From Candidatus Bipolaricaulota bacterium (GTDB taxonomy: Bacteria; Bipolaricaulota; Bipolaricaulia; Bipolaricaulales; Bipolaricaulaceae), in assembly GCA_025060555.1 (NCBI GenBank), contig JANXBC010000001.1, positions 8,904 to 72,903 on the forward strand: a DNA stretch of 64,000 bases, given 5' to 3'. A program made the translations under genes and the position numbers. The notes below the pieces were generated by a model that had not been told where the DNA came from, ran no database searches, and was given only the letters and a program-made list of their open reading frames with translations. Positions 8,491 to 51,806 of this stretch are shown piece after piece (position 1 is the stretch's first letter; the number at the start of each line of letters is the position of its first letter).

Positions 8491-9573
8491 ATGATTCACA
8501 AGATGCCTGGCCGGGGTTGGGAAGAGCTTGTGCGTAGGGTGCAGGAGGAGACGGCTCGCCGCTATCGGGAGAATCTCCTCCGACCTCGCCCGTTTCATTC
8601 TGTTTGGGCACCACTTACTGTCTCGGCTTATGAAGAAGCCCACCAATTGAAGAACACCCTGCTTCAGGAGTGTGCAGGGCGCTCCCTCCTCGATTTCTAT
8701 TCCGGCGAGGTGCACACCACGGAATATGGTCCTGTCCTTTCTCTTTGGGAAACGCCCCCGATCAAGCCCTTTATTCCTGAACGGGAGGTAGGCGAAGCTT
8801 GGATCATGCAGACCCTGCGCCTGTTACATGGGATTGGCAAAGCTACTGAGGCGCGCTTGAAACTCTCCGGCTACGTCACCCTGCGGGACCTCCTTTTTCA
8901 TCCGCGCTGGGCTTGGCAAGTGGAGCGGATCCTGGAGGCTGTGGAGAGACGGGACCTTCATACCCTTAACCATCTGGTAGCTCGTTGGTTTCCCGTGTCC
9001 CATCCCATCGCTCTAGCCCTTCTTGGGTTCGTGAAGCCCGAAGAGATCGTTTTCCTCGACATCGAAACCCTTGGGCTCTACACCGAGGCCGTCATTCTCA
9101 TTGGCCTTGCCTACCCACAAAACGGCGTCCTCCTCGTCAAGCACCTTGTTGTGCGAGAGATTGCTGAGGAGCTCCCGGTTCTCGTCGCTTTGCTCAAAGA
9201 GCTCCAAAGGGCAAAGGCGCTTGTTACCTATAACGGGCGAGCCTTCGATGTCAACTTCATCCAGGCCCGGCTGCGTTATTACGACCTTCCCCATAAAATC
9301 GACCTTCCGAATTTCGATCTCCTCCCGTTCACGCGGCGCTGTTTCCGGGAGTCCCTCCCCAACTGCCGCCTGGAGACCGTGGAGAAAGCCATTTCCGTGG
9401 AGCGCACGATCAACATCCCCAGCGCCCTCGTGCCCGAGTTCTACATGGAATATCTGCGGGAGAAGAACGTTGGGCCGTTGGTGGCCATCATCGAGCACAA
9501 CCGTCAAGATCTTCTTTCCCTCGTTCTTATTTTGCGGAAGCTTTGGGAGGAGTTGGTGATGCGTGGCCTTTGA
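8491..9573 (+). CDS. RNase H-like 3'-5' exonuclease domain protein (YprB/MrfB-like)
   Basis: VFLDIETLGL (Exo I-like), TYNGRAFDVNF and HNRQDLLSL motifs. Lies immediately upstream of a YprA-like helicase. Confidence 0.75.
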   Translation: MIHKMPGRGWEELVRRVQEETARRYRENLLRPRPFHSVWAPLTVSAYEEAHQLKNTLLQECAGRSLLDFYSGEVHTTEYGPVLSLWETPPIKPFIPEREVGEAWIMQTLRLLHGIGKATEARLKLSGYVTLRDLLFHPRWAWQVERILEAVERRDLHTLNHLVARWFPVSHPIALALLGFVKPEEIVFLDIETLGLYTEAVILIGLAYPQNGVLLVKHLVVREIAEELPVLVALLKELQRAKALVTYNGRAFDVNFIQARLRYYDLPHKIDLPNFDLLPFTRRCFRESLPNCRLETVEKAISVERTINIPSALVPEFYMEYLREKNVGPLVAIIEHNRQDLLSLVLILRKLWEELVMRGL

Positions 9574-11794
9574 AGAGCTTTTGCGGGACCTTGTTAGCCA
9601 AGACTGGTACGCTGGGCAGATCGTGGCCACATTCACCCTACCTGGCAAGGCTCCGAATTACGCCGAGTCTCGCCTGAGCTTCCACCCCGCGGTCCAGGGG
9701 TTCCTGGAGCGCCAGGGGATAAGACTCTTCACCCACCAGGCCAAGGCTGCGGAGCTCATCCTCGCGGGAGAGCATGTGTTCATCACCACCCCCACGGCCT
9801 CGGGAAAAACCCTTGCCTTCAACCTCCCTGTCCTCTCCCGGCTCCTTGCGGACAAGGAGGCCACAGCCCTCTACCTCTACCCCTTGAAGGCCCTGACCCA
9901 GGACCAGCTTCTGAAGCTGCGGGAACTCGAGGCTGGGGTGGGGTTTTCTCTGCGGCCGGAGATCTACGACGGCGATACGCCCAGCGAGGTCCGCCCAAGG
10001 ATCCGGGCCCAGGCCCGCATCCTCCTCACCAACCCCTACGCTCTCCACCAGTACCTCCCCTGGCACCACAAATGGGCCCGCTTTCTTAGGAACCTGCGGT
10101 TCGTAGTGATCGACGAGGCCCACCACTACCGTGGGGTGTTCGGCAGCCATGTGGCCCTTTTGCTCCGGCGGCTCCGGCGGATCCTCGCCCGCTACGGAGC
10201 TAAACCCCAGTTCATCCTGGCCTCCGCCACCATCGCCAACCCTGAGGAGCATGGGGAGAGGCTCATTGGCCAGCCCGTCGCAGTGGTGAAGGAGGACGGG
10301 GCGCCACGGGGCGAGAAAACCTTCGTGTTTTGGAACCCCTTCCTCGATACCAACACGTCCTGGTCCAATCAGGTGGCCTCCCTCATGGCCTTCCTCATCG
10401 GGGAGGGCCTCCAAACCCTGTGCTTCGCCACGTCGCGCCGGCTGGCGGAAGTGCTCGCAACCCAGGCCCAGGCCAAGCTCCCGGGCAAACGGGTCATGGC
10501 CTACCGGGCCGGGTACCTGCCTGAGGAACGGCGGGCCATCGAACGGGGGATCCGGGAGGGCGAGATCCACGGGGTCGTGTCCACCAACGCCTTGGAGCTT
10601 GGGGTGGACGTCGGCGGGCTGGACGCCGTAATTCTCGGGGGTTACCCGGGCTCGATCATCTCCGTGTGGCAGCAGGCGGGGCGGGCAGGCCGCGGCCCTA
10701 AACCCGCCCTCGTGTTCGTGGTGGGCCAGGGTGATCCACTAGACCAGTACTTCCTGCGCCATCCTGAAGAACTCCTTACTAGGCCGCATGAGCACGCCAT
10801 CATCAACCCGAAAAATGGGCCCATTCTCTTTCGCCAGCTCCTTTGCGCCGCCGGGGAATTCCCCCTCACGACCAAGGACCTGGAGCTCTTCGGAGCGGAA
10901 GGTGACGTGGCCCACGCCCTCCTTGGGAGCGGTCTTGTCGCCGGGACGCCCGTGGGCCTCGTGTACGCCGGGACCGTGCCGGCTGTGGAGCTTGTGAACC
11001 TCAATAACCTCTCAGACCGGACGATTCGCATCGAGGTGGACGGGGAGACCTTGGAGACCATGGATTACGAGCGGGCCCTGAGGGAAGCCCATCCCGGCGC
11101 GGTCCTCCTGCACCAAGGCACGACCTACCTCGTGCGTGAGCTCGATCTTGGGGAGGGTGTAGCCCGCTGCGTGTGGGAAGAGGTGGACTACTACACGGAG
11201 CCCCTCATCTGCGAAGACGTACGGATCCTGCGGGCCCTGGAGGAGCGGCGGTATGGGAATTTGCAGGTGGGGCTGGGCGAGGTGCGAGTGACCCAAGCGG
11301 TGCGGGCCTACCGGATGCGCCGGGCCGGGGTGACCTTGGGCGTAGAGGAACTTTCCCTGCCGCCGGTGGAGTTCGACACCGAGGGTGTGTGGTTTGCCCT
11401 GCCTCGGGAGCTTGCCCGCGACCTTGGGCCGGATTTGGCCGGGGCCCTACACGGCGCGGAGCACGCTCTCGTGGCCATCGCCCCCCTTCATGCCCTGGCC
11501 GACCGGTGGGACTTCGGCGGCCTCTCTACCCCCTTCCATCCCGACCTCACTGCGCCGGCGGTCATCATTCACGAGACCTTCCCCAACGGCGTGGGACTAG
11601 CGCACAAACTTTTCTCGGTCCTTGAGGAATGGCTTAAAGCCGCGGCTGATCTTTTGGAAACCTGCCCATGCCAGGACGGCTGCCCCTCCTGCGTTCTTTC
11701 TCCACGCTGCGGCAACGAGAACGAGCCCATGAGTAAAAACGGTGCGGCCCAACTCCTGCGATACCTTGCGGAAAGCCTTGTCCGGCCGCGTTGA
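9563..11794 (+). CDS. DEAD/DEAH-box helicase with C-terminal DUF1998/MZB Zn-binding domain (YprA/MrfA-like)
   Basis: Walker A TPTASGKT, DEAH box VIDEAHHY, QQAGRAGR motif VI. C-terminal CPCQDGCPSCVLSPRCGNEN four-Cys cluster. Confidence 0.85.
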   Translation: MAFEELLRDLVSQDWYAGQIVATFTLPGKAPNYAESRLSFHPAVQGFLERQGIRLFTHQAKAAELILAGEHVFITTPTASGKTLAFNLPVLSRLLADKEATALYLYPLKALTQDQLLKLRELEAGVGFSLRPEIYDGDTPSEVRPRIRAQARILLTNPYALHQYLPWHHKWARFLRNLRFVVIDEAHHYRGVFGSHVALLLRRLRRILARYGAKPQFILASATIANPEEHGERLIGQPVAVVKEDGAPRGEKTFVFWNPFLDTNTSWSNQVASLMAFLIGEGLQTLCFATSRRLAEVLATQAQAKLPGKRVMAYRAGYLPEERRAIERGIREGEIHGVVSTNALELGVDVGGLDAVILGGYPGSIISVWQQAGRAGRGPKPALVFVVGQGDPLDQYFLRHPEELLTRPHEHAIINPKNGPILFRQLLCAAGEFPLTTKDLELFGAEGDVAHALLGSGLVAGTPVGLVYAGTVPAVELVNLNNLSDRTIRIEVDGETLETMDYERALREAHPGAVLLHQGTTYLVRELDLGEGVARCVWEEVDYYTEPLICEDVRILRALEERRYGNLQVGLGEVRVTQAVRAYRMRRAGVTLGVEELSLPPVEFDTEGVWFALPRELARDLGPDLAGALHGAEHALVAIAPLHALADRWDFGGLSTPFHPDLTAPAVIIHETFPNGVGLAHKLFSVLEEWLKAAADLLETCPCQDGCPSCVLSPRCGNENEPMSKNGAAQLLRYLAESLVRPR

Positions 11795-11894: not shown

Positions 11895-14387
11895 TTACGG
11901 GGGATTAGCAACGGACACGGGTTGGCGTAGTTCACCCAGCGGCCGGATTTCCCGCGCCCGCGGGAGCACACGGATCTCGATGGTCCGTGACTCACCAGCC
12001 GTAAGGACTAGGACGTAAACCTCTTGCTCCACATAGTGCGGTGGCGCCATGGGGGGAAGCTCTACCCGGAGCTCCCAAGTCCCGGGGCAAAGCCCCTGGA
12101 AGAAGAAGCTTCCGCGGTCGTCGGTGAGCGTGCTATGCCGTACGGTTCCGTTGGTGAGGATCACCCTGGCCTGCGCTAGGGGGCGGTCCACCACCCACGT
12201 GTTCTTGTTGGTCAAGGTGAGCGCGTTGCCCGCTGGCCGGTAGGCGAGGACGTGGCCAGAGAGCGTGGCTGCGGGGACGAGGGCAATGCGTACAGTGGTT
12301 ACTTGACCCGCAACGATGCGCACGTTGAGAGGGAGCTCAGGCTGCGGGCAATAAAGGGGCATGGGGGTCAATATCTGAAGCTGGTAGTTTCCGGGGGCCA
12401 TGGGATAGAACCGGAATGCCCCTCCTGTTCCGGTCAAAGCCTGCTCCTTATCCAATTGCAACAGGACCCCTTCCAGGCCACGCTCACCGGGATCTTGAAC
12501 GCCGTTGGCGTTCTCGTCCACAAACACCACCCCCTCCACCCGCCCCATGGTCTCGAACAAGGGGAACGGCGCCTGGAAGCGTGCTTCGAAGTTAAGTCCT
12601 AGGAAACCCTGTTTCTTTGTAACCTGCGCGGTCCAATCCGCACCGCGCAGGCAAAAGCTGAGTTCTTCTTCACCCAAAAGGACCAAGCGGAGCTCACCCC
12701 AAAGCCCCATCGGGAAAGGAAACGTGGTCCCAAGGCAAAGCTCGCTTCGCACCGTGCCCGAAAACCACTGGGTCACCTCACCCGCCATGCAGAGGGAGTA
12801 ATTGGTGGTCGACCAATATGTGAGGTGACCCTTCAAGGTGAAAGTGGCCACGGAGACGGTGGCGAGCCGGTCAGCGGAGCTCAAGAATTCGCCAAGGATG
12901 GACCAGGAAAGCGGGCGCGCGCTGTCATAAAACCCTAGGCACAGCTTGGTATCCAGCGTATCCAACGACGCTGGACCTTCGTCGCGCTTTCCCTCGAGCT
13001 CCAAGGAAACGCGGAAATGCAGGGTACGCAAGAAGTTTGGGCTGAAGCCAAGGCGCCCAAGCACCCGAATACAAGTTCCCTCCCCAGTGTAAGAGAAACG
13101 CGCAAAGAAGGGCAACCACTCCCCACAAAGGCCTACGGTAACCTTGGAACCCCAGGAAAGTTCCCCGGAAATGGCCGGGCTTCCATGGGTGGAGATGCTC
13201 AGGGATGGCGAATTCCCCACTTGGAATTTGAAGGAAGTTTGGTCCGAGAACAGTGTCCCCAAGAGGACGAAATCATCACCAAGTTGAGAATAAAGGTCCA
13301 GCAAAATCTTATCTAGTCGGAAGTAAAAATGGAAGAGGGTTTCTCCGTCGTAGAAATAAATTGTGGATTGGTAGGCGCAAGCCAAGGGATGATAGGAGTA
13401 CCGTAGACCCAGGCCGCTTACGTCCCCGATAGGCGTGGTATAGCCTATTTGTCCCAGCCGTATTTCCCAAGACGGTTCACGGTACTCCACCCATCCGTCC
13501 AGAAATTCTCTTCCTTTTGGCGAAAGCGCGAGTTTCCCAGTTGCGGCGGCGTAACGGTTAGGGGCGATCATCCCGCCTAGAAAGAGGCAGAACTCCGAGG
13601 AGAAGCTATCTGTGAGCTTTCCGGTCCAGGAGAGCCGCGCGGGGACAAGGGGAAACAGGGAGATGGAGACCCGCTCTGGCGGCGGAGGCAGAACCGTTGT
13701 CCAGATCCAGCCCGCCTCATAAACCTCAGGATCGGCTAAAGACCGCACCGTGACCCAGCAGCCGCTGCGCTCCCCAGGCTTTGCCGTTTCCGGGAGGCTG
13801 AGGCTCAGCGTGACCTCTGCCGCCTCCCCGGGCATGAGGTGCACCACGCGTGGAAAAAGGTCAAAACGCCAGGGCGTGTTCACCTCGACCTGGAAGGAGT
13901 CCAAGACGTTCCCGCGATTGATCACCCAGAGGGTGTAGGTGATTTTTGTGCCCGGCCAAGCCTGGGTACCTGCGGGAAGCCGAAGCTCTACCCCGGCTTG
14001 CGGGAGCACAAGCACGCGGGCCTTAGTTTCCGCAGTGTGAGCGGGCACGGTGTGGCTTTGAACCCGCACTCCAATCTCATGTTCCCCTGCCGGCGTCAAG
14101 GCTGACACGAACAGCGAGACCAGTACAACCTTGGTCTCGCCCGGCCCGAGCTCTACCGTCTCCGGGGCCACGAGAACTGAAATCCCTGGGGGAAGAGCAA
14201 ATGAGACCCCGTATGTATCGAGAAAATTCGCCAGGTTTGTGAAGCGGAAGGCGAGGGTGGTTACGGAGCGCGGGGCCACCGTGCGCTCCGGAGAGATACA
14301 TACCAGGGAAACCGGCGCGGCGAAAACGAAAGCGGAAAAGAAGCCCAGAAGAACGGCGCTGAATAACGTCTTCTTCCCGGGCTTCAT
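11895..14387 (-). CDS. Locus A large protein: signal peptide, NEW3/CARDB-like Ig domains, central beta-barrel-like region, SdrD-B/CarboxypepD_reg-like C-terminal domains (putative usher-like or anchor component)
   Basis: ATG at 14387 preceded by GAGGGGG. Signal peptide MKPGKKTLFSAVLLGFFSAFVFA. Repeats of the type LGPGETKVV.V.L. The ~370-aa centre shows amphipathic beta-strand periodicity and ends FEARF. The C-terminus carries VFVDENANGVQDPGE and DDRGSFFFQGLCPGTWEL motifs. The function is inferred. Confidence 0.85.
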   Translation of the reverse strand: MKPGKKTLFSAVLLGFFSAFVFAAPVSLVCISPERTVAPRSVTTLAFRFTNLANFLDTYGVSFALPPGISVLVAPETVELGPGETKVVLVSLFVSALTPAGEHEIGVRVQSHTVPAHTAETKARVLVLPQAGVELRLPAGTQAWPGTKITYTLWVINRGNVLDSFQVEVNTPWRFDLFPRVVHLMPGEAAEVTLSLSLPETAKPGERSGCWVTVRSLADPEVYEAGWIWTTVLPPPPERVSISLFPLVPARLSWTGKLTDSFSSEFCLFLGGMIAPNRYAAATGKLALSPKGREFLDGWVEYREPSWEIRLGQIGYTTPIGDVSGLGLRYSYHPLACAYQSTIYFYDGETLFHFYFRLDKILLDLYSQLGDDFVLLGTLFSDQTSFKFQVGNSPSLSISTHGSPAISGELSWGSKVTVGLCGEWLPFFARFSYTGEGTCIRVLGRLGFSPNFLRTLHFRVSLELEGKRDEGPASLDTLDTKLCLGFYDSARPLSWSILGEFLSSADRLATVSVATFTLKGHLTYWSTTNYSLCMAGEVTQWFSGTVRSELCLGTTFPFPMGLWGELRLVLLGEEELSFCLRGADWTAQVTKKQGFLGLNFEARFQAPFPLFETMGRVEGVVFVDENANGVQDPGERGLEGVLLQLDKEQALTGTGGAFRFYPMAPGNYQLQILTPMPLYCPQPELPLNVRIVAGQVTTVRIALVPAATLSGHVLAYRPAGNALTLTNKNTWVVDRPLAQARVILTNGTVRHSTLTDDRGSFFFQGLCPGTWELRVELPPMAPPHYVEQEVYVLVLTAGESRTIEIRVLPRAREIRPLGELRQPVSVANPP

Positions 14388-14395
14388 GTTCCCCC

Positions 14396-15205
14396 TCATC
14401 TGGCCTCGAGTGTTACTTGGGCACCCCACACGCACTCATCCAGGTTGTCCACGATAAGGAGGGCGGGGTAGGTGCCGGGCTTGAGGAGGGGCAAAGCGAT
14501 GGTTTGGCGGACTGAGCAACCAGGAAGGATCGTACGCTGAGTTTCCACCGCGAACCGGCCTAGATTTTCTCCCTCGGTACTGTAAAGCTCCAAATACACC
14601 ACCGGCCGGAGACGCCGCTCACCCGTGTTCTCCAGGTCCACTTGGAACACGAGCCCTTCCTCCGTCCGGTTAACCCTTGCGTTTGATAATCTCAAATTGC
14701 ACGCCCCCAGGGCTCCGGCGATATCGGTGATCACGAGCACGGCGTATTGCACAATCTGCACCACGCCCACCACGATTTCGCCCGCCCCGGCCAGCGGAGG
14801 GGCAGGCGCAGCGGGGGTGATGAGTATTACACACCAGTAGCTGCCCCGAAGCATCGGATCCGCCGGAACGTTGATACGGTAACGCACAACGGTTTCTTCA
14901 CCGGGGCCCAAGGTGAATTGCTTGGGAAAAACTTCCAGCCAGCCTGCGTTCGTGCGGGGGTTCGTGCCCGGCTCGGCGTAAGCAACCCGACCATCAGCGT
15001 ACATGAGAAAATCACGTATGCTGACATTGACCGTCACCACTCCCTCGGACTTGCTGCGCACAACGATCTCACCGGAGTAGGTGCGACCTGGCTCCACGAA
15101 AAATTCGTGTCGGAGGCCGCCCTCGATCTCCACCACGGGCATTGGTTGGCCACCTACCACCAAGGAAAGGAACACCGCTAATTCCATCCCTAAAAGGATT
15201 TTCAT
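14396..15205 (-). CDS. Locus A secreted two-Ig-domain protein (DUF916/DUF3324-like, PapD-chaperone-like architecture)
   Basis: Signal peptide. Segment AGWLEVFPKQFTLGPGEETVVRYRINVPADPMLRGSYWCVILI aligns by eye with the locus B homologue (25833-26858). Confidence 0.85.
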   Translation of the reverse strand: MKILLGMELAVFLSLVVGGQPMPVVEIEGGLRHEFFVEPGRTYSGEIVVRSKSEGVVTVNVSIRDFLMYADGRVAYAEPGTNPRTNAGWLEVFPKQFTLGPGEETVVRYRINVPADPMLRGSYWCVILITPAAPAPPLAGAGEIVVGVVQIVQYAVLVITDIAGALGACNLRLSNARVNRTEEGLVFQVDLENTGERRLRPVVYLELYSTEGENLGRFAVETQRTILPGCSVRQTIALPLLKPGTYPALLIVDNLDECVWGAQVTLEAR

Positions 15206-15464: not shown

Positions 15465-15941
15465 TTAGTCAAGCTGCGCCAGCGTGTAGACCAGGGTGAT
15501 CGTGAAAGTTGCGCCAACGAAACTACGATCGGTTACACCGCTTGCGTCAACCATGAGGTACACATCCCTCGTTTGGTCCTGACCAGGGGCGATATCAGTG
15601 TAAAGCCGGACCGCCTCATAAAGCGGGCCTTCAAGGTCAAGCTCGGCCCAATCGGTCCCATTCGTGCTGATCTTGAGGACGAAGCCCGTGGGAACAGTCC
15701 CAGTAATGCTCTGCACACCCACTTGGATATCGCGGTTTGTATGGTCTGTGGTGTATGTGATCGTGAGCTTACCGCTCGTTGCAAAGGACAATCGCGCAAC
15801 AGTTATATTCAAATGCGCCGGAGCAATTATCCTGTCAGGATATGCTGGGTCTATGGTCACTGTGACAGTCTGTGTCGCGGTTACCGCTAATACCCGCAAG
15901 CTAAACCCAAGAATTACCGATGCCAAAATTGCCCTGCGCAT
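15465..15941 (-). CDS. Locus A small secreted beta-rich subunit (pilin-like, 158 aa)
   Basis: Signal peptide MRRAILASVILGFSLRVLA. Strong RBS AAGGAGAAGGAGGTG and its own promoter. The C-terminus ATFTITLVYTLAQLD is shared with the C-domain of the 16105-17058 product. Confidence 0.9.
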   Translation of the reverse strand: MRRAILASVILGFSLRVLAVTATQTVTVTIDPAYPDRIIAPAHLNITVARLSFATSGKLTITYTTDHTNRDIQVGVQSITGTVPTGFVLKISTNGTDWAELDLEGPLYEAVRLYTDIAPGQDQTRDVYLMVDASGVTDRSFVGATFTITLVYTLAQLD

Positions 15942-16104: not shown

Positions 16105-17058
16105 TCAGCTTATTAGCAGTGTGTAGACTAGAATGACGGTGAGGGAAGCTCCCACGTAACTCCGTGGTACCTCACGCGCCTCTACTTTCAGCTGCAGGGT
16201 AAATGAACCGGATCCGGAGAGATTTGTAACTATGGTCACAGCGTTGTACGGCTCTGAAAGCGGGAGTTCTACGTAACCTAGCTGCGCTGGCCCTTTCACC
16301 CACAGGCGTAACCCCGGGGGAACCGCAGGATAGACGTTCTGTACTCCCACGATAATGCTGCCTCCCGGAGGAACATAGGAATAGGTAACTATGAGGTCTT
16401 CGCTTTCCGCAACGGCCCCGCGCGCCACCCGGGGGCTCCAATCACTAGGGGCGGTGATATTGGGAAGCGCGTAGTACACAGTGATCTCCGCCGCGTCCAC
16501 GAAGCGTGTGCCTGCCGTGGTTCCAGACCCCACCCGTAGGCCAAAGCCCTGGGCGTTGATGTCCGCCGCTGTCCAGGAAGTTCCCCAAAGGTCCGTTGCG
16601 CTGCCCCAAGATTTCCATCCTGTTTCCGTGCAAGTGGTAGCCACACCTGGGCTAACTGTCTTATGACTTCCCACACGATTTCCGTTCTTAAGGAGAAAAA
16701 GGCCGAAGGCCCCGGCGGCGCTATGGCCGGCCTTGAGGGAAACTTTTATCCCAAGGATCGTGGCCATGGCGGGGATTTGGAAACCAAAGCCGCCAAGATA
16801 GAGATAAGCGTTGTTCTCGGTGGTTGTGGCACAGGTACCGTCAGCGGTGCGCAAAGCACTGCCCGCCGCAAGCCACGGGGTGGGAGCATCGGGCTCGTTT
16901 GGGAGAACAACACCCGCAAAACGACTCTGAAAATAGGGCTGGCAAAATGCCCGATAAGGTAAGAAGACCACCAAAGCTAGAAACGAAACTAATAGAAACA
17001 TGCTGCAAAAGCTTCCTTGCCTAGCAGGCCCTGCAAGCCTTCCCATGAATTTTAGCAT
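16105..17058 (-). CDS. Locus A two-domain secreted protein: novel N-domain plus subunit-like C-domain (tip-adhesin-like); start uncertain (17109, 17058, 17046 or 17001)
   Basis: Hydrophobic signal MFLLVSFLALVVFLPYRAFC. The N-domain shares the pattern IP..I.GI.V ... TDLWG..W ... VD...I.VYY with the locus B protein at 24862-25791. The C-domain ends SLTVILVYTLLIS, like the 158-aa subunit. Confidence 0.8.
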   Translation of the reverse strand: MLKFMGRLAGPARQGSFCSMFLLVSFLALVVFLPYRAFCQPYFQSRFAGVVLPNEPDAPTPWLAAGSALRTADGTCATTTENNAYLYLGGFGFQIPAMATILGIKVSLKAGHSAAGAFGLFLLKNGNRVGSHKTVSPGVATTCTETGWKSWGSATDLWGTSWTAADINAQGFGLRVGSGTTAGTRFVDAAEITVYYALPNITAPSDWSPRVARGAVAESEDLIVTYSYVPPGGSIIVGVQNVYPAVPPGLRLWVKGPAQLGYVELPLSEPYNAVTIVTNLSGSGSFTLQLKVEAREVPRSYVGASLTVILVYTLLIS

Positions 17059-17312
17059 CCTAAAAATTGCCCCGAATATTTCCCCCAAACTGCGAAAGGA
17101 ATGATACAACGGCCATGCGCGGTTGTGGAGTGAGGCCGGAAAATATGCGGTTTAATGCATGGCAATTGTGCCTGGGTGTTTAGCACCCGCGCGTATGTAT
17201 TCAAGCGGACATTTCCAGCGCTGTTTTTCCATAATTCGTTTCCAACCTTGACATCCACTTTCGGCCTGGTAACATTGGCCCTTCGGTTTTGGCTATATAA
17301 AGGACGGGGAGA

Positions 17313-24284: not shown

Positions 24285-24800
24285 ATGAAGAGCGTGAAGG
24301 TTTTGGCGGTTTTAGTGGCTGGAGTGATGGGCGTGGTGAGCGGGATGGCTCAAAGTGTGACAGCGAACTCCACAGCGACGTTTACGGTGCCGACGTTGAT
24401 TCGGTTGCAGCTCAGCGCTTCCACCATCAACTTCGGGACCCTCACCGAGGGTGACTACGATGTGGGCTACAAGGACGCCCTGAGCGCCCAGGTCGTGTAT
24501 GTTTGGAGCAACCGGCCTTGGACGCTCTCCGTGGCGGCGAACAGCGCGGCCTGGAACGGCCCGTGGGCCAAGCCCGCAAGCGACCTGCTTTTGCGTGTGG
24601 CTTCCGTGAACCGGCCGGAGCGCATCTCTTATTACCTAAACACCCTCACCGGCCTCACCACGAGCGGATTCACCGTTGCCCAGGGTCAACCGGGCGGGAA
24701 CTTCCAGCACACCATGGACTTCCGCGTTCTGGTGAGCTGGGACAACGACGTGGCCGGCAACTACTCGCTCGGCTTCACCTACACCCTCACCGCGCCGTGA
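24285..24800 (+). CDS. Locus B small secreted beta-rich subunit (pilin-like, 171 aa)
   Basis: RBS GGAGGTG. Signal peptide MKSVKVLAVLVAGVMGVVSGMAQS. The C-terminus is NYSLGFTYTLTAP. Confidence 0.9.
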   Translation: MKSVKVLAVLVAGVMGVVSGMAQSVTANSTATFTVPTLIRLQLSASTINFGTLTEGDYDVGYKDALSAQVVYVWSNRPWTLSVAANSAAWNGPWAKPASDLLLRVASVNRPERISYYLNTLTGLTTSGFTVAQGQPGGNFQHTMDFRVLVSWDNDVAGNYSLGFTYTLTAP

Positions 24801-24861: not shown

Positions 24862-25791
24862 ATGACCCGCAAACTCTTCCTCGGTTTAGTGGCATGGGGC
24901 CTCCTCGCGCTCCCCCTGGGGGCTCAGGACACAGGTTGGCGCAACCCCTCGCAAGACTATGGGGATTTTCGCAATCCCAAAGGGGCGTATTATGACGACA
25001 CGGATTACGCCTGGGCGGAACCCGGCCAAACCCACATCTTCTTTGGTTATGAATTCCTTATCCCGCAAACCGTAGAGATCGTGGGGATCGAGGTGCGTCT
25101 GGATGTTCGGCGCCACCCGGCAGGTGGGCCGTTCGTGGCGTATCTGGATGTGCAGCTTTCCGGGGACAGTGGCGCGACCTGGACGCGGGCCTACACTGCC
25201 GGCCCCATTGAGAGCGATTGGTCGGTCTTTATCCTGGGTGGCCCCACCGATCGGTGGGGAAGGGTCTGGCGTCCCGAGGAATTTGAGCCTTCCACGTTCA
25301 GGGTCCGCCTCACAGCCTGGGCGCCGCGCTGGCCCACGATTTACCTGGATTGGGTGGCTGTGCGCATTTACTACAGCACCGGCCTCACTCTAGAGGTGGC
25401 CCCCAAAACGGTGTCCTTGGGCACGCTCACCCTCGTGGACTACGACCAGGGTTATTTGGACCGTCTGGGAGCCCAGGCCGTAGAGCTCCGCAGTCCGGCC
25501 ACTTGGATCTTGTCCATCGCAGCGGTGCGAGCGGTCTGGAGCTACACCGGAACTCTGCCCGACCCCAAAAAGCCTTGCGGCCACCTCCTCTGGCGGGTGG
25601 AGTATGCCGAGGGCTCCGTGGACGCGGTGGAAAAGGACTTCATCCCCCTTTCCCTTTCAGAGCGGGCGGTGGCCAAGGGCCGAGCAGGCATGGCTAAGGT
25701 CAGCCTGAGCTTCCGCCTCCTTGTGGACTACGACACCACCTGGCCCGGCACCTACTCCCTGGACTTCCGCTACACCCTCACCAGCCCTTAG
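24862..25791 (+). CDS. Locus B two-domain secreted protein: novel N-domain plus subunit-like C-domain (tip-adhesin-like)
   Basis: Signal peptide MTRKLFLGLVAWGLLALPLGAQD. The C-domain segment TVSLGTLTLVDYDQGYLDRLGAQAVELRSPATWILSIAA parallels the 171-aa subunit. Ends YSLDFRYTLTSP. Confidence 0.9.
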   Translation: MTRKLFLGLVAWGLLALPLGAQDTGWRNPSQDYGDFRNPKGAYYDDTDYAWAEPGQTHIFFGYEFLIPQTVEIVGIEVRLDVRRHPAGGPFVAYLDVQLSGDSGATWTRAYTAGPIESDWSVFILGGPTDRWGRVWRPEEFEPSTFRVRLTAWAPRWPTIYLDWVAVRIYYSTGLTLEVAPKTVSLGTLTLVDYDQGYLDRLGAQAVELRSPATWILSIAAVRAVWSYTGTLPDPKKPCGHLLWRVEYAEGSVDAVEKDFIPLSLSERAVAKGRAGMAKVSLSFRLLVDYDTTWPGTYSLDFRYTLTSP

Positions 25792-25832
25792 ACCTTGTGC
25801 CGAAGTTTTCCTTCCCCCAAGATTGCCCTCGT

Positions 25833-26858
25833 ATGAAGCGTGCTTTCCTCCTTAGCTTTTTCTTCGTGGGTTTCCTCGGTGCAGCTTTCGAAGTGAACCT
25901 CCTGGAGGTAGACCTCCAGGCCCGACCTGGCCTAGTCCTTCCCTTCTCGTTCATTGTCAGGAACGAACTCGCTCAGCCTGAGCAGATTGTCCTTTACCTC
26001 GGCGACTGGGACCGCAACGAGTTCGGGGAGAATCAGTTTTACCAACCCGGCACGCTTGCCCGCTCCTCCGCTGCTTGGATCACCGTGGTGCCCACCTCCT
26101 TCGTTCTTGGGGCCGGCGAGGTGCGGGAGATCCAGGGTTCGGTGCAGATCCCTAACGACGCCAAACCCGGTACTTACTGGGCCATGGTATTCGTCCAAGG
26201 TGAGCCCCGCCTTGTCCCGTATGAAGGGGTTATGGTCACTGTGACGCGCCGGATCGGCATCAAGGTTTACATCACGGTTGAGCCCGCGGAGGCGCGCGGT
26301 GAGCTTCGGGGCGTGGAGGTGCGCGGCCTCAATCCGCTTTGGGCCTGGGTGAAGTTTGCCAACACCGGCACCCGGAACCTGCGGGAGGTCCGGGCCACGC
26401 TGCGAGTGGTGGATGTACAGGGCCGTACCGTGGCGGAGGCCAGCGCCGCACCTGTGCCGTGCCTTCCCGGCGCGGAGCGGTGGATCCGGGTGAACACGGA
26501 TTTCCGCCCCTCGCCTGGGGTGTACCAGGTTCTCGCCACCGTGGATTACGGCGGTGAGGCTCTCCTAGGCTTGACCCTGCGTTTGGCCGTTCGTCCCCTC
26601 TCCTTGTTTCCCTTGGGAGAAGGGCTTGGGATCCCTCAAGACCTCGACGGCAACGGGTTCTACGAGGACGTGAACGGCGACAGCCTCTTCAATGAGGTGG
26701 ACGTAGAGGTCTTGAGGGGGAACCTCATGAGCCCGGTCGTGCGTGCCAACCTCCGGGCCTTTGATTTCAACAACGACGGGGTTGTGGACGAGCAAGACGT
26801 AAAAGCTCTAGAAGCTCTCCTCGCAGCCATCCCGGCCAAACTTCCCGCCGGAAGATAA
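25833..26858 (+). CDS. Locus B secreted two-Ig-domain protein (DUF916/DUF3324-like, chaperone-like) with a C-terminal dockerin-like module; alternative GTG start at 25797
   Basis: Signal peptide MKRAFLLSFFFVGFLGAA. Segment AAWITVVPTSFVLGAGEVREIQGSVQIPNDAKPGTYWAMVFV is homologous to the locus A protein. C-terminal motifs DVNGDSLFNEVDVEVL and DFNNDGVVDEQDVKAL. Confidence 0.85.
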   Translation: MKRAFLLSFFFVGFLGAAFEVNLLEVDLQARPGLVLPFSFIVRNELAQPEQIVLYLGDWDRNEFGENQFYQPGTLARSSAAWITVVPTSFVLGAGEVREIQGSVQIPNDAKPGTYWAMVFVQGEPRLVPYEGVMVTVTRRIGIKVYITVEPAEARGELRGVEVRGLNPLWAWVKFANTGTRNLREVRATLRVVDVQGRTVAEASAAPVPCLPGAERWIRVNTDFRPSPGVYQVLATVDYGGEALLGLTLRLAVRPLSLFPLGEGLGIPQDLDGNGFYEDVNGDSLFNEVDVEVLRGNLMSPVVRANLRAFDFNNDGVVDEQDVKALEALLAAIPAKLPAGR

Positions 26859-26903: not shown

Positions 26904-29762
26904 ATGCGAGTTTTTGTCGGCGTGACCCTCGCGGGGTTTCTCGCCTTAGGGCAGGGCCTGGAACTCCTCCGCCTTTCCCCGCCGGCGAAAGTCCGCCCCG
27001 GTGATTTTGCCGTCCAAGTTTGGCAGATCGCCAATCGCTCCCCTTCGCCTATACAGGCCAAATTGCGCCCAGAGATCCCCGCGGGCTGGGAGATCCTAGG
27101 GCTTCCCGAAGCTCTTTCCCTTGGCCCTGGGGAGGAGGAGTTTCTTTTCCTCACGCTTTACGTTCCGCGCACGGCCAAAAGCGGGGTGCAACCGGTGCGC
27201 ATTCTCCTTCGCTGGGATGGGGAGGAGGTGGTTGCGGAGGCTACGGTGGAGGTGGAAACCGTGGCTGCTCTCATCCTTTCTCCCCCGGCTTCCCAGGCCG
27301 CCCCGCCAGGCGCGTCCCTCACATTTCCGCTCCGCGTGACGAACCGGGGAAATGCCCTGGACCGTGTCACCTTAGAGGTGCGCACCGCCGCGGGCTGGCG
27401 AGTGGAAGTGAGCCCTACTGAGCTTCCCTTGGCCCCTGGCGAGACGGGCGAAGCCCGTGTCACCCTGACCCTTCCTGCGGAGGCCCAGGTGGGACTGGAG
27501 GTAGTCTTGGCTACGGCCCGTTCAAGTCTTGCCCCGGAAGTGGAGGCCCGCACTGCCTGGTACGTGGAGGTCCTTCCCCCTGGGCCGGAGCGCGTCCCCG
27601 TGCAGCTTTACGCAGAATTGGCGATGCAGGGGCTGGCGCGTTTGGCCTACGACTTCCTTTCCGGGACCGGCACCTCGTTTTTGGGTTTCACCGGCCGGGG
27701 GACTGTGCTCGACGGGGCTTTGGAGCTTGCCGCACGCTGGTCCGGCCCTTGGGCCGCCCAGCCCTTCCAACTTTTGGATTTCCAGGCCACCTACGTTACG
27801 GACGCTTTAGAGATGCACGCCGGCCGGGTGGGCTTCGCCTTCGATTCCCTCCTTTCCCCGCTTGGCTTTTGGGGCCTGGGCGCGGAGCTTTCCCTTGGGG
27901 ATGTAAACCTGGCTTTGGGCTCGGGCTGGGAAGGCGAGCGTGGCAGGGCCGGTGGGCGGTTGACGTTGCGCGCCACATGGGGTGAGACGGGCAGTGCCTA
28001 CCGAGAAGAGCGAGGCAGTGATCGGCACAGCCAAGCCGGCACGATTTGGCTCGCCCTCCAGGCCCTAGAAAACGTGCGCTTCCAGGCCGAGGGCGGCGCG
28101 GCCCAGGTGAACGGCCTCACCCGCTTCGCCGGAGAAATGCGCCTCACCTGGGAGATCCCCGAACTTTTCCTCCTCGAGGCCCGCGGGTATGCCGTTGACC
28201 CGGGTTTCCCCGCCCTTTCGCCGGATCGGGTGGGGTTCCTCCTTTCCGGACGTTTGGGCGCGGAGGAGGCCGGCTTCCGTTTCACCTGTGAGTGGCAACG
28301 CGATAACCTCCGTGATCTTTCCCGCACTACACGCGTTTGGCAAGGGGCACAGGCAAGCTGGGATTTCTTTCCCATTGGGTGGCCTTTGCACTTTGGTTTC
28401 GGCCTTTCTTTGCGGCGCGCAGCCGATCTCTCGCTTTCGCCCATGCTGGATGAACGCACGGCCCACGCCGAAGTCATCGCTTCTTTCTCCTACCAAGATT
28501 TCACCCTCGGCGCGCAAGGGACATACACTTATTTTCAAAACCTTGTCTCTGGCTTCGCCTGGACGCGGGTTGAGTCTCGAGAATGGCTGGATCTTCGTTT
28601 TTCCCCGAATGTCTTGGTCTCCGTAGAATTTCGGCAAGCACGCTTTTCTTCTCCGAAAGAGGAAAGGACACAAGATGAGGCGGCATTGGTCCTCTCTGTG
28701 GACGAAAAGCTCCGGCTTTCTTGGGAGTATGGGTGTGCAGGTGGTCTAGCCCGCGCGGAATTCACCTGGGAGCCCGCCGCGGCTTTGACCATAAAGCTTG
28801 GGGCCGAGGCCAACTGGCAAGAAGCTGGACGACCCTTACGCTTCGGGGCCTCTTTGGAATTCACTCATAGCTTTTCTTGGGCTCCGCCTTTCTTGCCCGC
28901 CTTTGGCGTCCTTTCCGGCATAGTTTTTGCCGATTTAAACGGAAACAGCCGCCGTGATCGGGGTGAACCCGGCGTCCCTGGAGCAGTCCTCGCCCTCGAC
29001 GATGTCCAGGTTTCCTCCGGGAAAGACGGGGAATTTCGCTTCCCTGCGCGGGCACCCGGTGTGTACACGTTGCAAGTAGTACACACTCCCGCGGGGTACG
29101 CGGCCCCCCTTCACGAGCTATTGGTTTCTCTCGAGCTTGGGGAAAAGATGGAGATCGCCCTTCCCCTTTTGCCTTTGGCGAGGCTGGACGGCCTAATTTT
29201 TCTTGACGTCAATGCGGATGGGGTCTGGACGCCGGGCGAACAAGGTTTAAGTCGGGCTTATGTGCGCATTGTTCCTTCGGAGGGGAAGGTGCTCGAGGTT
29301 CCTTCCGATAGCCAGGGCCGATTCAGCTGGCCCGAGCTTCTTCCGGGGAAATATCGGGTGGAACTGGTTTTGGAATCCCTTCCTCCGCGTCACGAGCCGA
29401 CCACGCCAGTGGTGGCAGAGCTCGTTTTGCTGCCCGGAGAGAAGAAGAACGTGACTTTTGGCGTACGGGAGCGGCCCCGCCCGGTGGTAGTGATCCAGCC
29501 GCCGTTAGCAGATTTCACCTGGACGCCAAGCATTCCCAAGGCTGGTGAACCCGTGCTCTTCGACGGCACCCTCTCCCAGGCCTTCAACGGCGAAATCGTG
29601 AGCTACGCCTGGGATTTCAACAATGATGGCCACGTTGAGGCAGAAGGTGTGCGAGTAACCTGGGTTTTCCCGGAAGCGGGCTTCTATCTTGTCGCCCTCA
29701 TTGTCACCGACTCCGCTGGCTTCACCGGCCAGACCCAGTACCTTCTCCAAGTTCGCCCCTAA
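26904..29762 (+). CDS. Locus B large protein: signal peptide, NEW3/CARDB-like Ig domains, central beta-barrel-like region, SdrD-B/CarboxypepD_reg-like repeats, C-terminal PKD domain
   Basis: Signal peptide MRVFVGVTLAGFLALGQG. Junction LPPGPERVPV is shared with locus A (LPPPPERVSI). A ~430-aa amphipathic-strand region ends SLEFTHSF. Also VFADLNGNSRRDRGEPG, and PKD motif YAWDFNNDG...TDSAG. Confidence 0.9.
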   Translation: MRVFVGVTLAGFLALGQGLELLRLSPPAKVRPGDFAVQVWQIANRSPSPIQAKLRPEIPAGWEILGLPEALSLGPGEEEFLFLTLYVPRTAKSGVQPVRILLRWDGEEVVAEATVEVETVAALILSPPASQAAPPGASLTFPLRVTNRGNALDRVTLEVRTAAGWRVEVSPTELPLAPGETGEARVTLTLPAEAQVGLEVVLATARSSLAPEVEARTAWYVEVLPPGPERVPVQLYAELAMQGLARLAYDFLSGTGTSFLGFTGRGTVLDGALELAARWSGPWAAQPFQLLDFQATYVTDALEMHAGRVGFAFDSLLSPLGFWGLGAELSLGDVNLALGSGWEGERGRAGGRLTLRATWGETGSAYREERGSDRHSQAGTIWLALQALENVRFQAEGGAAQVNGLTRFAGEMRLTWEIPELFLLEARGYAVDPGFPALSPDRVGFLLSGRLGAEEAGFRFTCEWQRDNLRDLSRTTRVWQGAQASWDFFPIGWPLHFGFGLSLRRAADLSLSPMLDERTAHAEVIASFSYQDFTLGAQGTYTYFQNLVSGFAWTRVESREWLDLRFSPNVLVSVEFRQARFSSPKEERTQDEAALVLSVDEKLRLSWEYGCAGGLARAEFTWEPAAALTIKLGAEANWQEAGRPLRFGASLEFTHSFSWAPPFLPAFGVLSGIVFADLNGNSRRDRGEPGVPGAVLALDDVQVSSGKDGEFRFPARAPGVYTLQVVHTPAGYAAPLHELLVSLELGEKMEIALPLLPLARLDGLIFLDVNADGVWTPGEQGLSRAYVRIVPSEGKVLEVPSDSQGRFSWPELLPGKYRVELVLESLPPRHEPTTPVVAELVLLPGEKKNVTFGVRERPRPVVVIQPPLADFTWTPSIPKAGEPVLFDGTLSQAFNGEIVSYAWDFNNDGHVEAEGVRVTWVFPEAGFYLVALIVTDSAGFTGQTQYLLQVRP

Positions 29763-50570: not shown

Positions 50571-51806
50571 CTAGTAACGCCACTCTACAACGTACTCTAA
50601 CGCGGTCTCACTCCCCGGAAGTATGGGGACTACGAATTTTACGCGCTGGGCATCGACGATCTCATAGGGAAAGGAGGCACTCAAAATCCGCCAATAGCCG
50701 GAAAGGGTCTCGATGACCTCCACTTCCACTTTTTTATCCTTCGCGGAACGCAAAGTGATGCACCATGTGTCGCGATATAGGTTTTCGCCGATACGTTCAC
50801 GCCGTACCTGTACGCGGGTACCGGTGAGGTCGAAGGCTGCACCAACGACAAGCTCTGCGTCTTTCCCTTTGGGGAGGTGCCCGATGTTGTTAGCGCCCAC
50901 GAATATCCCTTCTGCGTAAACGCGAATCTCGCCCGCGGGGAAAACCGTTTCTTTAGTGTTGAATCTTAATCCCACTTCCACAGGTCCTCCGCTGAACCTG
51001 TAGAACTCTGTCGCAGGAATAGTAGCGTGTACAAGCGGAAGAACCATGCGTCCCTGGGGAAGGTCCCAGGTGCCGAAAAGATCGTATCGGTGGTATTCGA
51101 ACGCCTCTCCAGCTTCTGTGGAAGCGGCCTCGGGAGCAAAAGCCAGCGCCCGCAGCCCCGTATCCTTCGCCGGGCCACGCACCGCCCCAGCGATCAAGGT
51201 TATCTTTGCGTTCCTAAAGTCCATACCCGTGTCGTTTTGCACTAGCGCCTTTCCCAAAATCGTTAGGTTACCCCCCGCGAATTCCGCATCATAAGAAATT
51301 TCCCAGGTGAGGCCCTGAGCAAGGTACCTAAAGCGCACGTTCTTTTCCCCGGGCTCCGCACAGCGGTAGCAAAGGATAACTTGGCTTTGTCCTGTTGGGG
51401 TGTAGGTCGGACCCAGTAGCCAGAGATACTCGCGAACCAAAACCACACCTTCTTCGGTTTCCACCACCAATCCTTCCTCACTGATTTCTCGCAAAACGCC
51501 GCGAAACGCCCCGGCTTTGGTCTGCACCGTTATTTCTTTCCCCAAAAGATCTTGTAGGCTCCAGGCCTTTGGCGGAACGGGGCGAAGAGCAAGGATCTCT
51601 ACTCCCTCAACCACCAATGTCTCCCATAGGGTGCCGCGCGGAAAACCCCAGAGTTCAAGAACGCCCTCCTTGGCCAGTGTGACCGTTCTTGTCTCCTCGA
51701 CCAGGGCTGTGCCGGTGGAATAAAGCACAAGGGAAGTCTGGCCGAAGGCCATAACCCCAAGCATCCCTAAAAGTCCAAAGATAAGCATGAAATCACCCCA
51801 CCCCAT
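50571..51806 (-). CDS. DUF4139-like secreted protein
   Basis: N-terminal signal or anchor. An all-beta sequence with a C-terminal pattern typical of DUF4139 proteins. The family assignment is from memory and is tentative. Confidence 0.6.
   Translation of the reverse strand: MGWGDFMLIFGLLGMLGVMAFGQTSLVLYSTGTALVEETRTVTLAKEGVLELWGFPRGTLWETLVVEGVEILALRPVPPKAWSLQDLLGKEITVQTKAGAFRGVLREISEEGLVVETEEGVVLVREYLWLLGPTYTPTGQSQVILCYRCAEPGEKNVRFRYLAQGLTWEISYDAEFAGGNLTILGKALVQNDTGMDFRNAKITLIAGAVRGPAKDTGLRALAFAPEAASTEAGEAFEYHRYDLFGTWDLPQGRMVLPLVHATIPATEFYRFSGGPVEVGLRFNTKETVFPAGEIRVYAEGIFVGANNIGHLPKGKDAELVVGAAFDLTGTRVQVRRERIGENLYRDTWCITLRSAKDKKVEVEVIETLSGYWRILSASFPYEIVDAQRVKFVVPILPGSETALEYVVEWRY

Follow-up and report, generated by a model that had tools for sequence, protein, structure and literature searches.

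What is the role of two large secreted proteins of Candidatus Bipolaricaulota whose central parts look like outer-membrane barrels set between folded domains? They are encoded at two loci, A and B, of the window studied here, a stretch of 64,000 nucleotides (nt) of contig JANXBC010000001.1 (GenBank assembly GCA_025060555.1). An earlier note on this DNA had singled out the central segments and likened the proteins to ushers, large inverse autotransporters or LptD. We found that both barrel genes close a set encoding a small secreted subunit, a two-domain subunit, a periplasmic protein of two immunoglobulin (Ig)-like domains and the barrel protein itself. The loci are probably two four-gene operons for a divergent, plug-less surface fibre of the chaperone-usher type, previously unrecognised. 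This reading is carried by the domain architecture of the large proteins, the barrel prediction with its usher-like fold, the profile matches of the two-Ig protein to WxLIP and PapD-type chaperones, the pilin- and TLP-1-like fold of the subunit and the synteny of the genes.

The segments in question map exactly to amino acids (aa) 228-657 of the locus B protein (nt 27585-28874) and aa 255-625 of the locus A protein (nt 12561-13673), and all 11 peptides quoted from them are present in the translations (WEIRLGQIGY, GLGLRYSY, LHFRVSLELEG, LSWSILGEF and NFEARF in A; RLTLRATWGE, VRFQAEGG, EMRLTWEI, GFRFTCEW, LRLSWEYG and SLEFTHSF in B). The centre had been described as rich in aromatic residues and in hydrophobic/polar alternation. 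The former was borne out by a roughly 1.7-fold enrichment (12.8% versus 7.8% in B, 14.6% versus 7.8% in A). The alternation is weak as a sign of a barrel, since by a simple alternation score the centre could not be told apart from the Ig flanks, which are themselves beta-rich. No Pfam or NCBIfam family matched either central segment even at E ≤ 10, nor did any sequence in the PDB. The two large proteins are paralogues from end to end (25% identity, E 6e-38). In the locus B protein Pfam places NEW3/Ig_VWA7 at aa 130-206 and SdrD_B and CarboxypepD_reg matches towards the C-terminus (best stretches aa 764-829), followed by a PKD domain, as had been proposed for the downstream part; the locus A protein carries the same set without PKD, ending in two SdrD_B/CarboxypepD_reg-like domains. 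Upstream, the Ig-like nature of the modules stands, and of the two or three domains suggested the structural model contains two. The domain combination appears to be undescribed, as the earlier note had supposed: the barrel, the subunits and the two-Ig protein all lie outside the curated families, and NCBI names the large proteins only as "PKD/NEW3/SdrD B-like domain-containing" or hypothetical (locus tags of the matching window proteins, NZ651_00100 to 00150). Thus the system is invisible to annotation pipelines.

AlphaFold2 was run on the locus B large protein with a family alignment of 10 sequences (mean predicted local distance difference test, pLDDT, 86; predicted template modelling score, pTM, 0.46). 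Residues 238-659 were modelled as 26 consecutive long antiparallel strands with pLDDT of about 90, joined as nearest-neighbour hairpins. Individual strands are 8-17 residues long and span 76% of the segment, with a mean length of 12.3 residues in comparison with 6.8 in the flanks (DSSP on the model). All connections between strands comprise 2-10 residues; the odd-numbered ones (mean 5.4) are longer than the even-numbered ones (mean 2.6), the pattern expected of extracellular loops and periplasmic turns. The strands are amphipathic, with mean hydropathy of +1.26 on the hydrophobic face and -1.23 on the other. In the last strand, SLEFTHSF (NFEARF in A), F657 is invariant in 10/10 aligned family members, and a conserved PPFLP linker follows directly. 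On the proposed reading the segment would form a closed outer-membrane barrel that conducts subunits.

Foldseek comparison of the full-length model with the PDB placed the FimD and PapC ushers on top (E 1.3e-15 to 1.3e-8, probability 1.0, 720-810 columns), and the isolated FimD translocation domain (3ohn) matched at E 8e-8. The usher-type order of two Ig-like domains, a large barrel and then beta-sandwich domains is present in the model. Hence, of the likenesses suggested for a barrel of about 370-430 aa between folded domains, that to ushers gained support from the model, the fold matches and the gene neighbourhood. Those to LptD and inverse autotransporters did not, and LptD, intimin and FhaC were absent from the 50 matches listed. 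LptD combines a 26-strand barrel with an N-terminal beta-jellyroll in a host that produces lipopolysaccharide (LPS). We rejected this candidate on the lack of a Pfam LptD/OstA match and of LptD among the 50 fold matches listed, and it is weakened further by a Bipolaricaulota genome reported to lack LPS genes (PMC6092417). The same results bear on the idea that the central segment is a soluble beta-rich domain, such as a large sandwich, a solenoid or an open sheet, within a secreted multi-Ig protein. Such a domain would be compatible with an alternation score that does not set the centre apart from the Ig flanks, and the alignment behind the model is shallow (the 10 sequences and pTM of 0.46 given above). 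Nevertheless, it is contradicted by the confidently predicted meander of 26 consecutive hairpin strands and by the Foldseek matches to the barrels of ushers, among them the FimD translocation domain on its own. The conserved terminal aromatic strand and the diderm host also speak against it, and we regard a soluble domain as very improbable.

With respect to the host, full-length orthologues of the locus B large protein (59-65% identity) were found in metagenome-assembled genomes (MAGs) of Candidatus Bipolaricaulota, and several proteins of the window are identical to NCBI entries from one such MAG. For this phylum Thermotogae-like Omp-alpha/Omp-beta tethering has been described (bioRxiv 10.1101/2021.05.31.446380), one genome encodes an outer-membrane "bacterial surface antigen" and lacks LPS genes (PMC6092417), and the first isolate is Gram-negative with a toga-like outer membrane seen by cryo-electron microscopy (cryo-EM; bioRxiv 10.1101/2025.11.21.689855). 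The host phylum is therefore published as diderm, which makes an outer-membrane barrel plausible; within the window itself no outer-membrane biogenesis genes were found.

The gene neighbourhood assigns partners to the barrel. Proteins of the cassette carry signal peptides, and among the partners of the barrel protein the only significant Pfam family is one dockerin. The order subunit(s), chaperone-like two-Ig gene, barrel gene is repeated in related loci (L002, L004, L081-L086, L102, L103 and L104), and the contig of L003 starts within the chaperone-like gene with the barrel gene next. Ten metagenome contigs, mostly short and of soil type, were retrieved with the subunit alone (narrow subunit alignment). 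In 9/9 of those reaching past the subunit gene a two-Ig gene lies directly downstream, and the barrel gene then follows in all three that are long enough. Moreover, among the 98 sources scanned, open reading frames (ORFs) ending in YTLT[AS]P were confined to cassette loci.

An exhaustive search of 1.84 billion representative proteins with a barrel profile built from A and B yielded 16 relatives, and a two-Ig profile yielded 65 proteins of about 280 aa, one of them from a Chthoniobacteraceae MAG. A word-indexed homologue search with the central segment returned one fragment only (P0001, L001 212-1204), a 330-aa piece on a 1.2-kb contig. Over its first ~250 residues this fragment is 64% identical; the divergence beyond them looks like the result of a frameshift or a faulty assembly. 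An exact look-up of the locus B large protein among encoding contigs gave no match. In L081, L085 and L086 the gene order is two small subunits (with PPGTYTL..VYTLTAP ends), the two-Ig gene, a protein of about 1000 aa and a third small subunit. The ~1000-aa proteins have end domains like those of the window family and are homologous to it throughout, the centre included (HHalign 99.9%, E 5e-32, 838 columns). This wider family of predicted barrels is detectable by profile-profile comparison alone. The PKD domain is absent from it, as from locus A, and the barrel and two C-terminal sandwiches are kept. The third small subunit, encoded downstream of the barrel gene, is without the N-terminal TTQTVTVT extension and ends in YTLTSP like the two-domain subunit.

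We take the 171-aa protein of locus B to be the major pilin-like subunit. A homologue search returned 71 proteins at 51-100% identity and two at 27-31%, and every one that carries a source name is from Bipolaricaulota/Acetothermia. The family shares a W-T-L motif; its C-terminus is invariant (Y.L.F.YTLTAP), and its N-terminal stretch is conserved (STATFTVPTLIRL in locus B; family consensus STAxFTVPTLIRL). In the AlphaFold2 model of the subunit (pLDDT 86) this stretch is left outside the fold; residues 26-38, which lie outside any strand, represent a putative donor strand. Foldseek against the PDB ranked TLP-1a/b first (E 7e-5 and 2e-4, template modelling (TM) score 0.54-0.59 on the query), followed by the pilins CfaB, PapE, PapA, FimG and CsuA/B, the pilin domains of PapG and FimH, and archaeal donor-strand filaments. 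Pfam gave no relevant match in 20 members of the small-subunit family, and their profile had no relevant sequence match in the PDB. When the small subunit was searched against PDB sequences, TLP-1 proteins were the second and third best matches (E 0.13-0.29, not significant), with an alignment spanning the N-terminal donor strand (QNVTVTM versus TQTVTVT) and PGVYTL.

The 309-aa protein of locus B gave no Pfam match. Its C-terminal domain ends in YTLTSP and matches the small subunit (E 3e-20, 39% identity), and its N-terminal domain is homologous to that of the 334-aa protein of locus A (E 2e-6). Its architecture recalls that of a tip adhesin of the FimH/PapG type or of a "large WxL" protein. 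The protein has no free N-terminal extension, and the absence of the extension from both the two-domain subunit and the third subunit of the wider family suggests a tip-subunit-like pattern. Judged indirectly, from the fold matches of the subunit, its unstructured N-terminal stretch and the tip-type subunits, donor-strand exchange between subunits may be the mode of assembly. In locus A the small and the two-domain proteins end in ..LVYTLAQLD and ..LVYTLLIS, respectively, and not in YTLTAP/SP.

The two-Ig proteins of loci A and B are paralogous (E 2e-10). For profile-profile comparison (HHalign) we used WxLIP and WxL references from loci on Enterococcus, Melissococcus and Listeria plasmid records, found with a published peptide, and chaperone, usher and pilin references from E. 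coli K-12 fimbrial operons. The two-Ig family matched five WxLIP proteins over both domains (97.3%, E 2.2e-11, 225 columns), and Pfam WxLIP_PGBD (DUF916, PF06030) was reached over the same region in two members at E 0.054 (locus A) and 0.0046, both missing the Pfam cut-off. The family also matched six E. coli chaperones (FimC/SfmC/YadV/YehC/ElfD/YcbF) over both domains (87.4%, E 3.7e-6, 213 columns). WxLIP and the E. coli chaperones compared directly gave 7.5% (E 0.005, 138 columns). In the controls the same chaperones gave 0.3% (E 0.19, 60 columns) with the N-terminal module of the barrel protein and 0.0% (E 0.88, 18 columns) with its C-terminal module. On these profiles the two-Ig family is the sole family here with matches to both WxLIP and PapD-type chaperones. 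Its strand RIGxK[VI][YF], with alternating hydrophobic residues, falls on the PapD G1 strand (sRiKLfyRP, Lys112 region), the Lys included; the corresponding strand of the locus B protein, RRIGIKVYITV, lines up with the donor strand G1 of PapD-type chaperones. Pfam PapD_N/C did not match the chaperone-like proteins of the window. Many members of the wider family are named "P pilus assembly chaperone PapD" in the independent annotation of the Joint Genome Institute (JGI). The type I dockerin at the C-terminus of the locus B protein (Pfam E 3e-7) is kept in the orthologues of L002 and L083, whereas the locus A paralogue and the ~282-aa wider family lack it. No cohesin was identified as its partner; a possible docking site is the set of Ig-like modules in the barrel protein.

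The match to WxLIP raises an alternative, a WxL-type surface complex in a diderm, i.e. an adhesive platform that does not polymerise, placed at the surface of the cell or on peptidoglycan, for which the barrel would serve as secretion pore or anchor, with no fibre made. WxL clusters of Lactobacillales/Bacillales consist of small WxL, large WxL and WxLIP (DUF916 + DUF3324) genes (PMC9772566, PMC10599100), and in a published AlphaFold2 model a hairpin strand of WxLIP inserts into WxL (PMC10599100). The cassette holds the same trio of gene types, with a large subunit that shares its C-terminal domain with the small one, its two-Ig protein is homologous to WxLIP, and the subunit motifs (..FG..lt, SNR.W[TS]L, Y.L..YTLTAP) are collinear with the two WxL motifs; polymerisation of WxL proteins is not known. 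In contrast to WxL clusters, the cassette is found in a diderm host and adds an outer-membrane barrel gene, and it has no LPXTG partner. Its two-Ig protein does not have the membrane helix found at the C-terminus of WxLIP, the 269-aa form stopping after the second Ig domain and the 353-aa form ending with the dockerin. The first WxL motif is present as W[TS]L, but the second takes the form of YTL at the very C-terminus, and Pfam WxL matched none of the 20 small-subunit members. Furthermore, the best fold matches of the subunit model are polymerising donor-strand fibres, and the N-terminal extension is strongly conserved although unstructured in the monomer model. It is missing precisely from the two-domain and third subunits, a tip-versus-rod pattern. 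We therefore consider a non-polymeric platform unlikely and a chaperone-usher-type fibre the better explanation.

Such a fibre could be assembled as follows. Subunits would be exported to the periplasm by Sec, where the two-Ig protein would cap the incomplete Ig-like fold of each by donating the beta-strand RIGxK[VI][YF] (donor-strand complementation). The periplasmic Ig-like modules of the large protein would receive the chaperone-subunit complex, and the N-terminal extension of the next subunit would displace the chaperone strand (donor-strand exchange), the growing fibre leaving through the 26-strand outer-membrane barrel. Because the two-domain subunit lacks a free N-terminal extension, it would be the first to enter and would form the tip of the fibre as an adhesin. 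In this scheme we infer fibre formation, polymerisation, gating of the pore and the membrane sidedness of the terminal domains.

Several observations weigh against a chaperone-usher-type fibre. As to the pore, the TM-scores of the model to FimD/PapC were low (0.23-0.42), so that the usher match holds at the level of architecture. The large proteins had no match to the usher family PF00577 at E ≤ 1, and HHalign against five E. coli ushers gave E 0.23 for the barrel and 0.055 for the full-length protein, i.e. no sequence similarity. The model contains 26 strands in comparison with 24 in classical ushers. Its strands 6 and 7 enclose no plug domain, since all inter-strand connections have only 2-10 residues, and the sealing of so wide a plug-less pore lacks an explanation. 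As to the chaperone, the carboxylate-anchoring Arg8 of PapD (TRvIY position) is not conserved in the alignment. The two-Ig family also matched the N-terminal Ig pair of the barrel protein (96.1%, E 3e-9, 182 columns) and is thus part of a broader group of Ig tandems, for which reason the 87% match to PapD-type chaperones is suggestive and not conclusive. From the same homology, the large protein may carry a built-in chaperone-like module at its N-terminus (aa 20-223, nt 26961-27572). As to the subunits, HHalign matches to E. coli pilins (17.8%, E 0.0014, 35 columns, default run) and to WxL domains (5%, E 0.008-0.028, 121 columns, motifs collinear) were not significant. The small protein of locus A reached only E 0.05 with a subunit profile built without locus A, so that membership of the locus A small proteins is argued from position, size, signal peptide and the ..LVYTL.. 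motif. Homology of the C-terminal domain of the 334-aa protein to the B subunit family was not demonstrable. Finally, a Bipolaricaulota genome study reported no pili or adhesin genes (PMC6092417), we found no report of pili on Bipolaricaulota, and L087 holds an orphan two-Ig gene.

To these points are added two barrel homologues (30% identity) in other Bipolaricaulota MAGs, L005 9941-12847 and L006 1598-4552, around which the fetched sequence contains no subunit or chaperone-like genes. The gene upstream of the barrel is uracil phosphoribosyltransferase-like in both, and it was ruled out as a chaperone-like candidate. Partner genes may be located elsewhere, or these barrel copies may act alone. 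The latter would suit a different reading, in which the large protein is an adhesin of the inverse-autotransporter type whose barrel exports its own C-terminal SdrD_B/PKD domains, the upstream genes encoding unrelated secreted proteins. SdrD_B, CarboxypepD_reg and PKD domains at the C-terminus are typical of surface adhesins. Nevertheless, known inverse autotransporters such as intimin and invasin have 12-strand barrels with a C-terminal passenger, and neither a Pfam intimin match nor intimin or invasin among the 50 fold matches listed was obtained. Moreover, the synteny with subunit and chaperone-like genes is conserved, and the absence of PKD from locus A and the wider family, with the barrel and two sandwiches kept, fits the CTD1/CTD2 domains of ushers better than a passenger. 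A stand-alone adhesin is thus improbable, even more so than the WxL-type platform, and we retain the chaperone-usher-type fibre.

In comparison with known chaperone-usher pili (Fim/Pap, CFA/I, Csu/CupE), the cassette has the same layout, namely a subunit, a two-domain tip-type subunit, a two-Ig chaperone-like protein and a large predicted barrel flanked by sandwiches. Among PDB folds the barrel protein comes closest to ushers and the subunit mainly to pilins, and the suggestive profile match of the chaperone-like family to E. coli chaperones takes in the G1-strand Lys region. The cassette differs in having no sequence match to the usher, PapD_N or fimbrial Pfam families, in the invariant YTLTAP C-terminus of its subunit and in the dockerin on one chaperone paralogue. 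Unlike classical ushers, the window protein has two N-terminal Ig domains paralogous to its chaperone-like partner and C-terminal domains of the SdrD_B/transthyretin type, with PKD in addition in locus B. TLP-1a/b (PDB 9IKJ, 9IKK) are orphan donor-strand-exchange fibrils from pond water determined by cryo-EM, the organism and assembly machinery being unidentified (PMC11494351). As in the window subunit, their N-terminal strand is disordered in monomer predictions, but the TLP-1 protomers have about 236 aa with extra elements, in contrast to 171 aa here. As a lead only, the cassette family may be the assembly machinery of TLP-1-like fibrils. A full-text search of the literature found no research paper connecting WxL clusters with ushers, and the sole comparable recent report is that on the Pam pilus of Candidate Phyla Radiation bacteria, which has no usher and comes from a donor-strand-exchange operon with PapD/FimC-like two-Ig chaperones (bioRxiv 10.64898/2026.03.03.709456). 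Compared by description only, both systems lie outside Proteobacteria, and the Pam tip pilin has no linker strand, like the putative tip subunit here. However, the Pam chaperones are membrane-anchored while the chaperone-like protein of the window is soluble, and the Pam system is reported to do without trans-envelope machinery, its host being monoderm, whereas the cassette has a predicted barrel.

Table. Positions of the cassette genes and of their domains in the window and, for the third small subunit, in related loci
Feature	Position	Strand	Remarks
Small subunit, locus B	24285-24800	+	171 aa; signal peptide
Two-domain subunit, locus B	24862-25791	+	309 aa
N-terminal domain of two-domain subunit, locus B	24862-25371		
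C-terminal subunit domain of two-domain subunit, locus B	25372-25788		Ends YTLTSP
Two-Ig chaperone-like protein, locus B	25797-26858	+	353 aa; signal peptide, C-terminal dockerin
Strand RRIGIKVYITV of two-Ig protein, locus B	26247-26279		aa 151-161
Dockerin type I of two-Ig protein, locus B	26661-26816		aa 289-340
Usher-like protein, locus B	26904-29762	+	952-aa ORF with signal peptide
Ig-like domain 1, locus B large protein	26961-27254	+	aa 20-117; AlphaFold2 model
Ig-like domain 2, locus B large protein	27270-27572	+	aa 123-223; AlphaFold2 model
Predicted 26-strand barrel, locus B	27615-28880	+	aa 238-659; AlphaFold2 model; segment singled out in the earlier note
C-terminal beta-sandwich 1, locus B large protein	28905-29174	+	AlphaFold2 model
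Beta-sandwich 2, locus B large protein	29178-29471	+	AlphaFold2 model
PKD domain, locus B large protein	29499-29756	+	AlphaFold2 model; Pfam aa 866-945 = nt 29499-29738
Usher-like protein, locus A	11895-14435	-	846-aa ORF as listed; NCBI start nt 14387, giving 830 aa
Barrel, locus A	~12561-13673	-	Last residues NFEARF
Two-Ig chaperone-like protein, locus A	14396-15205	-	269 aa; no dockerin
Small secreted protein, locus A	15465-15941	-	158 aa; signal peptide; C-terminal end FTITLVYTLAQLD
Two-domain secreted protein, locus A	16105-17109	-	334 aa; C-terminal end LTVILVYTLLIS
Third small subunit	L081 14480-14974; L085 11865-12353; L086 12066-12560; L102 6107-6598; L104 4301-4792		Wider family

Outside the two loci the window holds housekeeping genes only. 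The stretch 8491-11794(+) encodes a 360-aa protein of the RNase_H_2 superfamily and, after it, a 743-aa DEAD-box helicase that carries an MrfA Zn-binding domain. The pair looks MrfAB-like, would serve in DNA repair and has no relation to the barrel loci. At 50571-51806(-) lies a 411-aa ORF without Pfam match at E ≤ 1e-5.

If the chaperone-usher-type reading is true, the cassette would be a new, deeply divergent chaperone-usher branch in a phylum of which one surveyed genome was reported to have no genes for pili or adhesins, and its 26 strands, missing plug and chaperone-like N-terminal module would raise the question of how ushers are gated. It would provide a testable evolutionary bridge from the pilus chaperones of Gram-negative bacteria to the poorly understood WxL/WxLIP clusters of enterococci, listeriae and lactobacilli, which may likewise work by strand donation. 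It would also point to genes that may assemble orphan fibrils from the environment, TLP-1 among them. A more far-reaching idea, which we put forward tentatively and hold to be rather doubtful, is that the cassette is the missing link by which chaperone-usher pili, WxL clusters and TLP-1-type fibrils are joined into one ancient superfamily of donor-strand-exchange fibres. In that case the 26-strand pore, without a plug and joined to a chaperone-like Ig pair, would have evolved independently as a kind of "usher", and a new type of machine for secretion and assembly at the outer membrane would extend from the deep-branching, toga-bearing Bipolaricaulota to other bacteria represented in soil and other metagenome contigs.

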